A DNA stretch of 64,000 nt from Promethearchaeota archaeon. GTDB taxonomy: Archaea; Asgardarchaeota; Lokiarchaeia; Sigyniarchaeales; SOKP01. Positions within the stretch are counted from its first letter, which is position 1, and each line of letters starts with the position of its first letter. Shown piece by piece: positions 21,323-25,387 of this stretch. Location: the NCBI GenBank assembly GCA_019058365.1, contig JAHPZE010000002.1, forward strand, positions 1 through 64,000, given 5' to 3'. The translations under genes and the position numbers were made by a program. Below the pieces are notes generated by a model that saw nothing but the letters and a program-made list of their open reading frames with translations, was not told the origin of the DNA and made no database searches.

Positions 21323-22540
21323 ATGAAATATAGGAAAATGGGATCCCTTGGTTGGGATGTATCTGTTCTGGGATTTGGGGCAATGCGACTCCCTATGATT
21401 GATCAAACAACGGTAAATGAAGAAGAAGCTATTAAAATGCTTCGTTATGCTATAGATAATGGAGTAAATTATATTGATACTGCTTATCCTTACCATAATG
21501 GGGAAAGTGAAGTAATTGTGGGAAAAGCCCTCCAAAATGGTTATCGCGAGAAAGTTCATCTTACAACGAAATTACCCATCTGGTTAGTTAAGAAAAGGGA
21601 GGATTTTGATAAATTTCTTAGTGAACAGATTGAAAGATTACAAACTAAACCTGATATTTATCTTTTCCATGGTTTAACTAAAAGTCGACTAGAGAAAATC
21701 AAAAATCTTAATTTAATTGAAAAAATAGAGGATGCAAGGGAGGGAGGTTTATTTCAATATACAGGGTTTTCCTTTCATGATAATTTTGAAGTCTTTAAAG
21801 ATATACTCGATTATTATAATTGGGATTGTTGTCAAATTCAATTTAATTATCTTGACATTGATTATCAAGCAGGCATAAATGGAGTCAAATATGCCGGAAG
21901 TAAGAAAATTGCGTTAATAATTATGGAACCTATTCGTGGTGGGAAGTTGGCTATTCCGGAGAAGAAATTAGATACTAGATCAGAAATTAAAAATATTCTA
22001 GATAAATCAAAAGTTAAGAGATCTATGGCCGATTGGGCATTACAATTCGTCTGGAACCATTCTGAAGTTTCAGTTGTATTAAGTGGAATGAGTAATATGC
22101 AACAAGTTAAAGAAAATATCGAATCTGCTAATAAGGCTGTAAATAATAGTTTAATTGAAGAAGAAATGCAAACAATTTCTGAATTACGTAAAGTTTATGA
22201 TAAATACGATCTTGTCCCCTGTACTAGTTGTAGATATTGCTTACCATGTCCAAATGGAGTATCTATTCCATGGGTTTTTAGACTTTTAAATGATCTAGGA
22301 TATTGGGGCGAAGACAGTAAAGTTAGAATTTCATTTTTTTATGATAGGATGGCAAAAACTCCAGAAGAATTGGAAAAAAGGCTTTCTGAAGAAGAAGAAG
22401 TTGAAGGAGCGGCAAGTTTATGTATTCAGTGTGGTGAGTGTCTTGAAAAATGCCCTCAACAAATTGATATCCCTGATATTATGAAGAAAGCTAATGGAAT
22501 TTTTGAAGAAGGGAAAGAGATCTCAGAACTTTTCTTTTAA
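21323..22540 (+). CDS. Aldo/keto reductase with C-terminal 4Fe-4S domain
   Basis: SVLGFGAMRLP, NYIDTAYPY, IMEPIRGG, CTSCRYCLPCP, CIQCGECLEKCP. Confidence 0.92.
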   Translation: MKYRKMGSLGWDVSVLGFGAMRLPMIDQTTVNEEEAIKMLRYAIDNGVNYIDTAYPYHNGESEVIVGKALQNGYREKVHLTTKLPIWLVKKREDFDKFLSEQIERLQTKPDIYLFHGLTKSRLEKIKNLNLIEKIEDAREGGLFQYTGFSFHDNFEVFKDILDYYNWDCCQIQFNYLDIDYQAGINGVKYAGSKKIALIIMEPIRGGKLAIPEKKLDTRSEIKNILDKSKVKRSMADWALQFVWNHSEVSVVLSGMSNMQQVKENIESANKAVNNSLIEEEMQTISELRKVYDKYDLVPCTSCRYCLPCPNGVSIPWVFRLLNDLGYWGEDSKVRISFFYDRMAKTPEELEKRLSEEEEVEGAASLCIQCGECLEKCPQQIDIPDIMKKANGIFEEGKEISELFF

Positions 22541-22629
22541 TTTTCCTTAATATTACAGTACCATTATTTATAATCAAAAATTTCTTTTAGAAAGATAAGT
22601 AATTTGAATTAAAAATAAATTTTGCGTAT

Positions 22630-22655
22630 GGCTCCTTGACGGTTAGAGTGGTCAC
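22630..22655 (+). repeat. Degenerate copy of the spliced 5' end of tRNA-Sec (att-like scar)
   Basis: GGCTCCTTGACGGTTAGAGTGGTCAC versus mature tRNA-Sec GGC-CCTTGACGGTCGGAGTGGTCTC. Confidence 0.65.
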
Positions 22656-22908
22656 CCTTTATCTAAATAATATTAATAATACTCAACATTTTTGGAAAGA
22701 ATTCCTAAAAAGACGTGATTTTATAAAATATAAAGGTATAGAATCCTTTATTAGAACCTATTATCCTGATATCGTCACACGATTTTATAAAGATGTTCCA
22801 AGAGGTCAGCTGAAATCTGCAATCAAATAAATGATTCAAAATTGGATTAATGATGGAAATCCAATACCTATACTTCCGAAGTATTTACAAAATCTTCTTA
22901 TTCATTAA
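22656..22908 (+). pseudogene. Gene fragment of unknown origin with one internal stop
   Basis: The 22636-22830 frame continues in frame after TAA (MIQNWINDGNPIPILPKYLQNLLIH); no proper 5' end. Confidence 0.4.
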
Positions 22909-23028
22909 AAAAATGATTGGATATGAATATAATATGCAGATAAAAAGAGAAATTTATTAAAAAAGTTTCAAATTTTAAAATATAAACAGTAAATTTCTTT
23001 TAGAACTGTATACTTTATTACTCAAAAT

Positions 23029-23185
23029 GGCCCTTGACGGTCGGAATTGCTTTTAGATCGTATCGATCTGCAACGATAAGTGGTCTCTGACGCTGGGCTT
23101 CAAACCCAGTTATCCTGCGGAGGGGTAGGAGTTCGATAACGGTTAGAAATAATCTGATCTTCGAAAATCTCCTCGAGGGCCGCCA
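23029..23185 (+). tRNA. selC: tRNA-Sec (UCA) with two BHB introns (23046-23079 in the D-arm; 23138-23167 in the T-loop); CCA encoded; 93 nt mature
   Basis: 9-bp acceptor GGCCCTTGA/TCGAGGGCC, 7-bp D-stem with TGGT loop after splicing, 6-bp anticodon stem with TCA at 23100-23102, long variable arm, 4-bp T-stem, G73; directly upstream of SepSecS. Confidence 0.95.
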
Positions 23186-23218
23186 TTATATCAAAAAAAT
23201 AATTACATTGTGTTTTCA

Positions 23219-24580
23219 ATGGTTGACTTTAACAAAATTATTGAATTTTTTGAAACTTTGAATATTCCTGAAAATATGCTTAAGAGAGGACAACTTGTTT
23301 TAAATGAGTTCATGAATCCAATAAAAATTTTATTTGAACAAAGATCTGTACCTAATAAACCTTGGACTGATGAACAAATCGAATTCTTACTTCAAACACT
23401 TTCAAATATGGATACAGATAAAGATATTAATGCTGCTAGAGTAGGTGAAAGAGAAGGAAGAATCGCTTCAAAATTACATTTAAGAACGTCAGCAGGATTC
23501 TGCCATGGTGTGGGAAGAAGTGGATTTTTAACAGCACCTCAACCTAAGGCACCTGGTGGATCAATAATGTATGAACTTTCTAATTACTTAGCTCGTAATA
23601 TTTTAAGAAATACGGGATTACCAAACATAAAGGAGGCAATTGTAGTCCCGTTATGTACGGGAATGTCTTTATCTTTAGCATTGAGCGCTTTAAAATTTAG
23701 TAAGAGTGAAAGAGAATTGAATCATAAAAGAACAGTCTTAGTTCCTCAAGTAGATCATAAATCTCTTTTAAAAGCGATTGATTTTGCAGGTTTTAAAGCA
23801 AAAATTATTCCCGGACAGATTTTTGGAGATGCGGTTAGGATTCCAATAGATGATATAAAAAATCATTTTGATAATGACTGTTTTGCTATCATCTCAATTA
23901 CTAGTTTTTTTCCCCCTCGTGAACATGATAATATTAAAGAAATAAGTAAATTCGCTCAAGAAAAGAATCTTGTACATATCGTTATAAACGCATACGGGGT
24001 TCAAAGCCCAGAATGGATGAAATTAATTCGTTCTGCAATTGATGCAGGGAAGATAGACGCAATAATTCAATCAACAGATAAAAATTTCCTTACTCCTATA
24101 GGTGGAGCTGTAATAGCATCACCGTTAAAAGAAAATATAACTAAAATCAGCCAAGCATACGCGGGTCGCGCCTCAGCCACACCTATTGTGAATTTCTTAA
24201 TTTCAATGTTATCAATAGGAATAAAGGGTTATCAAAAACTACTCAAAGAACAACAACATAATCGTGAAATTCTCGAAAGAAAATTAAGGGAAATTGCTGA
24301 AAAACTAAATGAAAGAATTCTTGATATATATAATCCCGTTGCTGTAGCACTATCATTACAAAATCTAAGTGAAAAAAAATTGTATGCCCTTGGTGGAGCA
24401 TTGTATAACTTAAGAGTAACAGGACCAAGAGTATATAACCCAAAAGAAAACCCATTTGGAACATGTTGTAGCAATTATCCAACCCCATATATCGTAATGA
24501 ATGCTGCAATTGGAGCATCAGAAAAAGATATCATTTCTGCTGTCGAGAGATTTGAAAAAGCATATAACCAAATAGAATAA
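23219..24580 (+). CDS. spcS: O-phosphoseryl-tRNA(Sec) selenium transferase SepSecS
   Basis: GEREGR, HGVGRSG.LTAPQPKAPG, TGMSL, NAYGVQ, QSTDKNF (PLP Lys), YAGRASA. Confidence 0.96.
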   Translation: MVDFNKIIEFFETLNIPENMLKRGQLVLNEFMNPIKILFEQRSVPNKPWTDEQIEFLLQTLSNMDTDKDINAARVGEREGRIASKLHLRTSAGFCHGVGRSGFLTAPQPKAPGGSIMYELSNYLARNILRNTGLPNIKEAIVVPLCTGMSLSLALSALKFSKSERELNHKRTVLVPQVDHKSLLKAIDFAGFKAKIIPGQIFGDAVRIPIDDIKNHFDNDCFAIISITSFFPPREHDNIKEISKFAQEKNLVHIVINAYGVQSPEWMKLIRSAIDAGKIDAIIQSTDKNFLTPIGGAVIASPLKENITKISQAYAGRASATPIVNFLISMLSIGIKGYQKLLKEQQHNREILERKLREIAEKLNERILDIYNPVAVALSLQNLSEKKLYALGGALYNLRVTGPRVYNPKENPFGTCCSNYPTPYIVMNAAIGASEKDIISAVERFEKAYNQIE

Positions 24581-24706: not shown

Positions 24707-25387
24707 ATGGAAAACCGGCTACTAAACCAATTTAATAATGTCATTACTTCTCAATGGCTTTCTAAACAAATAGAAGAGCCATATAGTCCTTTAATTCCTC
24801 GAGAATTGTTTGAAATCGCATATCACACATGTAATTCCGTGACTATGAGAAATATTTATATAAAACAATCTTCAAGTGAAGAACAAGGTGGTTCTAAAGC
24901 AGTTTTATATTCGAATAACAAAAAATTTATAGCAATAGAAGGTTTAGAAAATTCTTTAAAAATTACAAAATATTTTAACGAAGAAACTACTGGTGATAAA
25001 ATTGTAACAGAAATTCAACCGCTACTTACAAAACGAAAAGCGAATTTTACCTCTAAGGATGCAGAAATAAAAATTCAGATTTTAAAAAGCATTTTGGTTG
25101 AGAGAAAACTCGATGAATGTGTAAATTTAGTATTCTTAAAAGGTATAAATCGAAAAATATATTTTGCTATTGGGGATGCTAGAGAATCAGCAGCTGTCGT
25201 TCCAATATTTATGGAAGCTGAAGGCGCCAGTTTGGTTCAATTAGCTTTAAATAAGTGGATGGAAACAGCTCAGAGACTAGAACAAGAACATAATTTTCCT
25301 GATAATCTTGTTCCCGGTATTCTCAAAAATCTTACCCAGATAAAGAAATGGCTCCTTGATTTAATTAGTACATTTCTAGATAAATAA
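24707..25387 (+). CDS. Hypothetical protein
   Basis: 226-aa ORF, host-like composition, no recognised motif. Confidence 0.75.
   Translation: MENRLLNQFNNVITSQWLSKQIEEPYSPLIPRELFEIAYHTCNSVTMRNIYIKQSSSEEQGGSKAVLYSNNKKFIAIEGLENSLKITKYFNEETTGDKIVTEIQPLLTKRKANFTSKDAEIKIQILKSILVERKLDECVNLVFLKGINRKIYFAIGDARESAAVVPIFMEAEGASLVQLALNKWMETAQRLEQEHNFPDNLVPGILKNLTQIKKWLLDLISTFLDK

Follow-up and report, generated by a model that had tools for sequence, protein, structure and literature searches.

The orphaned front end of a selenocysteine tRNA gene, and the decayed one-gene cassette that separates it from the working gene, in an Asgard archaeon

In the 64,000-nucleotide stretch of Loki-type Asgard archaeal DNA analysed here (the window, from the genome designated G000), nucleotides 1-24 of the spliced selenocysteine tRNA (tRNA-Sec) are copied at 22630-22653, 400 bases before the working gene. 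Comparison with relatives indicates that this relic is the orphaned front end of a former intron-less tRNA-Sec gene, still standing behind its own upstream region. Our best explanation of the locus as a whole, to which we give a probability of roughly 65%, is that a homing-endonuclease-like cassette entered tRNA-Sec and orphaned its front end, that the cassette then decayed, and that the result was imported into this genome by recombination. The features of the locus are as follows.

21323-22540, + strand: AKR, an aldo/keto reductase gene with a 4Fe-4S domain (PF00248, 3.7e-36, plus Fer4 domains)
22541-22629, + strand: old upstream (promoter) region u, collinear with the 88-92 nt that separate AKR and tRNA-Sec in relatives without introns
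22578-22592, + strand: first copy of a 15-nt motif, AAATTTCTTTTAGAA, 52 to 38 nt before the relic; exact repeat of 22991-23005
22630-22653, + strand: relic, the first 24 nt of a tRNA-Sec gene that had no intron; alignable with the start of intact genes in relatives
22654-22908, + strand: remnant of gene X (last 83 codons at 22657-22905, in-frame TAA at 22828-22830, natural stop at 22906-22908)
22909-23028, + strand: new upstream region u', brought in by the cassette, with homologues upstream of tRNA-Sec in G032, G064, G024 and G070 and in 54 nt after gene X in contig L093
22991-23005, + strand: second copy of the 15-nt motif, 38 to 24 nt before the tRNA
23029-23185, + strand: tRNA-Sec(UCA) with two introns (ARAGORN on the spliced sequence; borders from intron-less 93-nt orthologues)
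23219-24580, + strand: SepSecS, O-phosphoseryl-tRNA(Sec) selenium transferase, the right neighbour (PF05889 on orthologues); native and G005-like from about 23290
22300-23290 (approximate), no strand assigned: imported recombinant tract, holding the AKR 3' end, u, the relic, the gene X remnant, u', tRNA-Sec and the spacer

The 26-mer at 22630-22655, GGCTCCTTGACGGTTAGAGTGGTCAC, aligns to the spliced 5' end of tRNA-Sec with 22 matches, 3 mismatches and 1 inserted T, and the alignment crosses the D-arm intron site (17/18) without interruption, much as an earlier note on this DNA had described it (about 22 of 26 positions, straight over the intron-1 junction). The extra T lies in the acceptor strand, and an A occupies the second variable D-stem position. 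When both strands of the 4.74-Mb genome were scanned with substitutions and one inserted base allowed, the relic lay at 3 edits from the spliced 23-mer and was the only site within 5 edits besides tRNA-Sec itself; the runner-up required 6. The locus thereby shows a partial direct repeat of a tRNA 5' end, on the same strand as the intact copy and upstream of it, at a level beyond chance. Logan contigs from three sediment runs (one study) match 22430-23100, or parts of it, with 0 differences, which provides independent support and rules out an assembly artefact. The same relic was not found in other representative genomes of the genus. G072:C142 and G002:C27 also gave pattern matches to the tRNA 5' end, but these fall within ordinary genes and were rejected as chance; the two in G013 are contig ends that overlap each other.

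ARAGORN and Rfam (gathering threshold) find no tRNA in the raw window, and the working gene was recognised only after splicing by hand. Its exons (23029-23045, 23080-23137 and 23168-23185) have borders fixed by the intron-less 93-nt orthologues. Once the D-arm intron (23046-23079, 34 nt) and the T-loop intron (23138-23167, 30 nt) are both removed, ARAGORN calls a 93-nt tRNA-SeC(tca) with the archaeal 9/4 fold and a 7-bp D stem. Intron states vary within this one genus: most genomes have none, G005, G006, G009, G013, G014, G016 and G028 have the D-arm intron alone, G068 has the T-loop intron alone, and both are present in G000, G018, G024, G032, G061, G064, G069, G070 and G076. The D introns at site 17/18 comprise at least three unrelated-looking sequence types. 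SepSecS was present in 36 of the 36 first-sampled genomes of the genus, and in 58 of 61 relatives.

Several other peculiarities of the neighbourhood were seen. The single-contig genome G006 has two tRNA-Sec loci, L084 (G006:C1:770000-782000) and L085, about 367 kb apart in opposite orientation, both with NUDIX and AKR genes upstream. At the second locus only the first 89 codons of SepSecS follow and the D intron is of a different, G009-like subtype; the duplicate stems either from the transfer of a large segment or from chimeric assembly. Long gaps between tRNA-Sec and SepSecS in the basal clade (130-1090 nt) were considered as sites of mobile DNA and rejected as such. They hold a metallo-beta-lactamase-fold gene of ~310 aa on the opposite strand (G022, G028, G076 and G077). 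Basal members of the genus have this gene, others keep only pieces of 130-440 nt, and the crown group, including the window, lacks it. Following SepSecS at 24707-25387 is a 226-aa ORF that belongs to no Pfam family; with its counterparts of 226-227 aa at the same place in distant metagenomic lineages (L122-L129), it is a conserved neighbour of Sec genes.

The origin of the relic is indicated by its flank. AKR is the conserved left neighbour of tRNA-Sec and lies upstream of it in most of the 47 genomes of the genus in which we catalogued the locus; the majority layout is AKR, 88-92 nt, an intron-less tRNA-Sec, 21-33 nt, and SepSecS. In BLASTN comparisons with more than 20 (about 30) intron-less relatives, the AKR end, the intergenic DNA and the first 23 nt of the tRNA run collinear with 22300-22653, and the rest of the relatives' tRNA aligns to the window from 23079 onward, which leaves ~425 nt extra in the window. 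Because the relic stands at the gene start of these relatives, it is what remains of the front of a gene that once resided here. It retains the flank that uninterrupted genes have, and alleles with an empty site occur in the close relatives (sisters) G027 and G031 and in more than 20 others. The intact copy has an intron at the site that the fragment spans without one, and the relic of one metagenome contig (L121, described below) does carry an intron.

The broken ORF that the earlier note had seen between the two copies (22657-22905, with a TAA at 22828-22830) proves to be a decayed gene belonging to a protein family. A phmmer search of 1.84 billion proteins with the remnant returned 22 matches, of which the best was P0001 (408 aa; 67% identity, E 1.8e-28), aligned over residues 327-407, its last 81 residues. 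Gene X is patchily distributed (12 of 54 genomes), and the remnant also aligns as DNA to contig L093. No second copy of the insert 22654-23028 was found in the genome. This foreign, patchily distributed gene, together with the collinear flanks, bears out the earlier proposal of an att-like partial duplication produced by foreign DNA inserted at tRNA-Sec, and the empty sites, larger inserts and intron-less selC genes that the proposal led one to look for in relatives all exist.

Undecayed cassettes were found on two metagenome contigs, L093 and L121, neither of which has a complete downstream tRNA beside an intact gene X. L093, from which P0001 derives, opens with the AKR stop codon; 7 nt later comes a relic that spans nt 1-35 and has no D intron. 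Intact gene X begins ~135 nt further on, and the 54 nt that close the contig behind it are a u'-like tail with homology to 22909-22960 in the window. The junction in L121, a JGI contig, is as in L093, and its relic contains a 33-nt D intron. Since this undecayed form exists, the arrangement in the window is its derivative. A ~1.1 kb deletion brought relic nt 24 up against gene X at about codon 325, as shown by homology to P0001 that starts two codons after the relic. A stop codon also arose in the remnant.

Decay of this kind is seen repeatedly. Its signs include the extra acceptor-strand base in the relic, the in-frame stop in the remnant, and the loss of the relic altogether at the homologous locus of G064. 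Gene X remnants of 35 to 185 codons, without a relic, lie directly before u', tRNA-Sec and SepSecS in G064 and in two other metagenomic lineages, which is the pattern expected if deletions spare only the new promoter region. L122-type tRNA-Sec genes adjoining such remnants have no D intron. Where relics are present, they end at nt 17 (G005), 24 (window) or 35 (L093 and L121), around the D arm and anticodon stem.

Gene X matches no family in Pfam or PHROGs, a profile search against PDB sequences returned nothing, and close-relative scans of IMG/VR revealed no viral match. When the C-terminal half was modelled with AlphaFold (pLDDT 95.5), the conserved core, ERHHIF..NRLVL..NH..E, fell on a beta-beta-alpha unit. 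Foldseek found nothing significant (E above 1) for the whole protein or the domain, and a VIA search with the whole protein was dominated by helical bundles. A Foldseek-independent search with the C-terminal domain gave 39 chains with Z of at least 2, mostly HNH-type nucleases. The top matches were Cap5 (Z 5.5, rmsd 3.2, 92 aligned), the Cas9 HNH domain (4.1) and McrA (3.9), and IscB and phage HNH enzymes were also found. Together with the H..N..H-like conserved motif, the modelled fold makes gene X a probable, not an established, HNH-fold nuclease, the scores being weak (Z at most 5.5). The possibility that it is an SSV-type integrase gene split by its attP was rejected, as nothing resembling a tRNA is present at the junction codon of P0001.

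Paralogues of gene X, 544 aa long, reside beside rpS11/rpS4, and no tRNA was detected next to them by ARAGORN, which would miss intron-rich tRNAs. G018 has a full-length 544-aa paralogue (L094, G018:C9). At the matching position in the genome of the window (L107, G000:C9:97606-97869) there is a second decayed paralogue fragment, 35% identical and with one TGA, beside rpS4/rpS11.

The slot occupied by gene X in the window holds other genes elsewhere. In G061, a 1169-nt insert between AKR and a two-intron tRNA-Sec contains a LAGLIDADG_3 gene (42 bits):

L051:1601-2503, - strand: LAGLIDADG_3 gene of G061, with one in-frame TAA, 84 nt upstream of tRNA-Sec

Only a C-terminal remnant of the LAGLIDADG gene is left in G018 and G076, so that a LAGLIDADG_3 gene or remnant adjoins tRNA-Sec in three genomes. 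G061 retains roughly 60 nt from the start of its native upstream region and has no relic. Three more homologues, 30-40% identical to the G061 gene, occur in open frames of 376-630 aa elsewhere in G000 (C49:54928-56055, C32:11967-13856 and C52:29138-30706); ARAGORN, which would miss intron-rich tRNAs, finds no tRNA beside them.

The sister genome G005, whose SepSecS is 97% identical to that of the window, has its own relic of nt 1-17, which ends exactly at the intron site. Different foreign DNA follows, with a truncated small gene and an ORF that has a possible HNH motif (read by eye). This latter ORF, itself small, matches only PHROGs of unknown function and is unrelated to gene X by BLASTP. 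The working tRNA-Sec of G005, at a contig end, lacks the T intron, and its D intron, of 30 nt, is a different one. The inserts hold single genes: a LAGLIDADG gene, gene X, or a small, possibly HNH-type ORF. Pfam and PHROG searches of the window insert, P0001, the G061 insert and the partly assembled G005 insert (to the end of C146) found no integrase or recombinase, virus or plasmid gene, and no tyrosine or serine recombinase gene or remnant was recognised in an insert.

The locus also moves between species. The window and G005 are 98-100% identical as far as ~22280, beyond which identity drops to 87, 82 and 78%. G000 stands apart from its three sisters at 2 positions within 21700-22299 and at 44 within 22300-22629, and 31 of the 44 are common to clade-A-like genomes (the other clade); on the right side there are 6 such sites in 23186-23285 and almost none after. 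A tree of 22290-22629 places G000 outside the G005/G027/G031 clade (support 99/97). The identity drop, the distribution of sites and the tree show that ~1 kb was imported as a block by homologous recombination, and that this tract, including the last 240 nt of AKR, was copied in from a related species. The relic did not arise in this genome; the donor lineage is probably where it was made.

Trees and intron sequences point the same way. In the SepSecS tree, the window genome lies among intron-less genomes as the sister of G005, whereas the two-intron alleles most like its own are found in another clade. Intron states are discordant with that tree more generally: G018 and G032 have SepSecS sequences 75% identical, with D introns 94% and T introns 97% identical, and G032 and G068 have SepSecS sequences 97% identical, yet differ in the presence of the D intron and the linked upstream region. 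These comparisons indicate that the tRNA-Sec gene itself is exchanged between species. Presence in some close relatives and absence from others, frequent degeneration and co-converted flanks are all observed. The foreign sequence is not limited to an att core; the working gene is of donor type across both introns and the T stem.

The alignments show that a one-gene cassette (gene X, 408 aa) was inserted into tRNA-Sec and that the 5' end of the gene was partly duplicated in the process; at remnant-bearing loci u' and the working tRNA-Sec follow gene X. The intron-bearing copy arrived with the inserted DNA, and so the intron was not gained after the duplication, contrary to one suggestion of the earlier note. 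Its other suggestion, an element from an intron-less host, does not fit a relic that is the front of the resident gene, collinear with the intact intron-less flank in relatives. That note's reading of the locus as an integration scar holds as far as the scar goes; the order of events and the kind of element do not, the inserts being single genes with no integrase, virus or plasmid gene among them.

The cassette is, in our reading, a free-standing, homing-endonuclease-like element. Its nuclease would cut cassette-free tRNA-Sec genes, and repair of the break from a cassette-bearing copy would transfer the nuclease gene along with the adjacent promoter, 5' exon and intron or introns. Aberrant repair would occasionally strand the old 5' end as a relic, presumably functionless and decaying. 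This reading fits the small size of the cassette, the presence of unrelated genes in one slot (one LAGLIDADG, others possibly HNH-type), the repeated degeneration of those genes, the mosaic flanks, and the positions at which relics end (nt 17, 24 and 35). Classical homing produces no target duplication, so the relic needs aberrant repair or some other mechanism.

Other observations count against homing. The structural scores for gene X are weak, an intact gene X and a complete tRNA downstream of it were found on no single contig, and the 544-aa paralogues reside beside rpS11/rpS4 with no detected tRNA. Also, because the L121 relic has a D intron and L122-type genes have none, a simple rule by which the intron shields the target fails; the related idea that tRNA introns disrupt attachment sites is weakened by the same relic and by those gene-X-linked tRNA-Sec genes in which the intron is missing. 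The broader proposal that protein-spliced (bulge-helix-bulge) tRNA introns of Asgard archaea are mobilised by free-standing homing endonucleases, namely gene X and the LAGLIDADG enzyme, whose targets would be tRNA-Sec genes that lack the intron or the cassette, is one that we put forward tentatively, with perhaps one chance in its favour for several against.

Of the alternatives, classical integration survives best, although we consider it unlikely. Under this explanation, which is that of Sugahara 2012 and in essence that of the earlier note, the attB recognised by the integrase of a virus or plasmid was the 5' part of tRNA-Sec; attL survives as the relic, attR is contained in the working gene, and the element has shrunk to a few hundred bases. 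A tRNA-end direct repeat around foreign DNA is the textbook signature of such an event, but neither an integrase nor a recombinase turned up in the inserts examined, and the undecayed insert, measured between the relic and the tRNA, would comprise only ~1.5 kb with one gene (135 nt and 1.2 kb in L093, plus ~120 nt of u' taken from the window). The single precise junction at nt 35 in the undecayed relics of L093 and L121, and the second, independent insertion at tRNA-Sec in G005, would also suit an integrase, whereas the fold of gene X matches HNH nucleases and not recombinases, and the close-relative scans of IMG/VR gave no viral counterpart of gene X. Finally, there is a precedent in the Caldiarchaeum tRNA-Thr locus (PMC3293823), set against which the foreign part of the working gene in the window extends to the T-loop intron, far past a 5' att core.

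A local tandem duplication of the promoter and tRNA 5' end, with no mobile element and with a later unrelated insertion and decay, is already disfavoured and very improbable. The exact 15-nt motif before both copies is what such a duplication would leave, but u and u' cannot be aligned outside it, u' and the tRNA introns match loci of other species and not the flank of the relic, and gene X lies between relic and tRNA in independent contigs. Motifs related to AAATTTCTTTTAGAA are found upstream of tRNA-Sec in relatives, and the motif may be a promoter element; as a tRNA-specific signal it was rejected, with 21 sites in the genome at no more than 1 mismatch. A 12-of-13 copy, AATTGCTTTTAGA, is present at the D-arm intron (23045-23057), and related ACCAAAAAnTTCTTTTAA motifs precede tRNA-Sec in distant lineages. 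The usual 90-nt upstream region could itself be the descendant of an earlier cassette.

A function for the relic, as an alternative or split 5' exon for the downstream tRNA body or as a decoy or regulatory RNA, is hardly credible. The old upstream region is intact, and the D-stem bases GGTTAGAG could pair with a downstream CTCTGAC (read from the sequence). However, the extra base breaks the 9-bp acceptor helix, and in ARAGORN the hybrid begins only at base 2; folding of the 76-nt relic transcript gives nothing remarkable (-8.4 kcal/mol); the relic is absent from other representative genomes and deleted in G064; and a complete gene lies downstream. The acceptor helix, splice motif and conservation characteristic of split tRNAs were not found. 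Chance similarity in AT-rich intergenic DNA, for which nothing speaks except the shortness of the relic, is already refuted by the 9.5 Mb of strand searched with no other site within 5 edits, by 0 of 100 shuffles reaching a match of this quality, and by the position of the relic exactly where relatives have the gene.

Elements of the SSV and pNOB8 types measure kilobases to tens of kilobases and carry a tyrosine recombinase, and integration of the SSV type splits int at attP. The locus in the window resembles them in having a tRNA gene as target and a tRNA-end direct repeat that brackets the insert; the large size, the tyrosine recombinase and the split int are not seen here.

The closest precedent is the tRNA-Thr(GGU) locus of Caldiarchaeum subterraneum, where a tRNA-Thr-F fragment (nt 1-27) lies upstream of the two-intron tRNA-Thr-II (Sugahara 2012, PMC3293823). 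The intact copy there has an intron at 24/25, the insert is 1.87 kb, and its ORF was classified by machine learning as a putative recombinase, for which a pNOB8-type integrase model was proposed (PMC3293823). The two loci share a same-strand 5' fragment upstream of the intact copy (1-27 there; 1-24 here and 1-35 in the undecayed form), an extra intron in the intact copy at a site spanned by the fragment, empty-site alleles, and a one-ORF insert of 1.5-1.9 kb directly before the intact gene. They differ in that the slot here holds a LAGLIDADG gene or genes weakly resembling HNH nucleases, the series covers ~50 species with a tree, the cassette in the window is decayed, the tract was moved by homologous recombination, and one relic has an intron.

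Collaborative (trans) homing is known from phages, as with T4 mobE and the I-TevIII intron (PMC2790892) and with F-CphI beside the psbA intron of cyanophage S-PM2 (PMC6083498). As with those free-standing endonucleases, the nuclease gene here lies outside the intron and adjoins the intron-bearing gene, is patchy and often degenerate, is accompanied by co-conversion of the flank, and belongs to different nuclease families in one slot. Unlike the phage cases, which involve self-splicing group I introns, this locus concerns a cellular archaeal tRNA with protein-spliced introns and candidate nucleases, and it includes a target duplication (the relic) and a replacement promoter.

Within the same phylum, the tRNA-Sec of Lokiarchaeum has a single, 31-nt T-loop intron (Mariotti 2016, PMC4989117; Santesmasses 2017, PMC5330540). 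It shares the 9/4 fold, the 7-bp D stem and the T-loop intron with the window gene, which differs in having a second intron in the D arm. That D-arm intron and the variation within a genus go beyond what those two reports describe (PMC4989117, PMC5330540).

The insertion scar is real and ordinary in kind, but the series to which it belongs is unusually informative. Fragmentation of archaeal tRNA genes and the gain of non-canonical introns are an old question whose main anchor has been one population-level case, the Caldiarchaeum tRNA-Thr. The present locus, the single-copy tRNA-Sec of Asgard archaea, adds a second case resolved in far greater detail, in which one genus displays empty sites, undecayed cassettes, three relic lengths, progressive decay, four intron combinations and horizontal exchange. 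For annotators, it is relevant that ARAGORN and Rfam overlook the tRNA-Sec of these genomes, and for taxonomy that tRNA-Sec intron content is an unstable character. Because the inserts carry single nuclease-type genes and not integrases, the likely mechanism shifts toward homing-type break repair, and these genes name concrete proteins and DNA substrates with which that mechanism can be approached. The locus thus suggests a testable route for the gain and exchange of archaeal tRNA introns. If free-standing nucleases do mobilise these introns, collaborative homing would explain how archaeal tRNA genes gain introns and pass them on horizontally, with relics like the one at 22630-22653 left as by-products.
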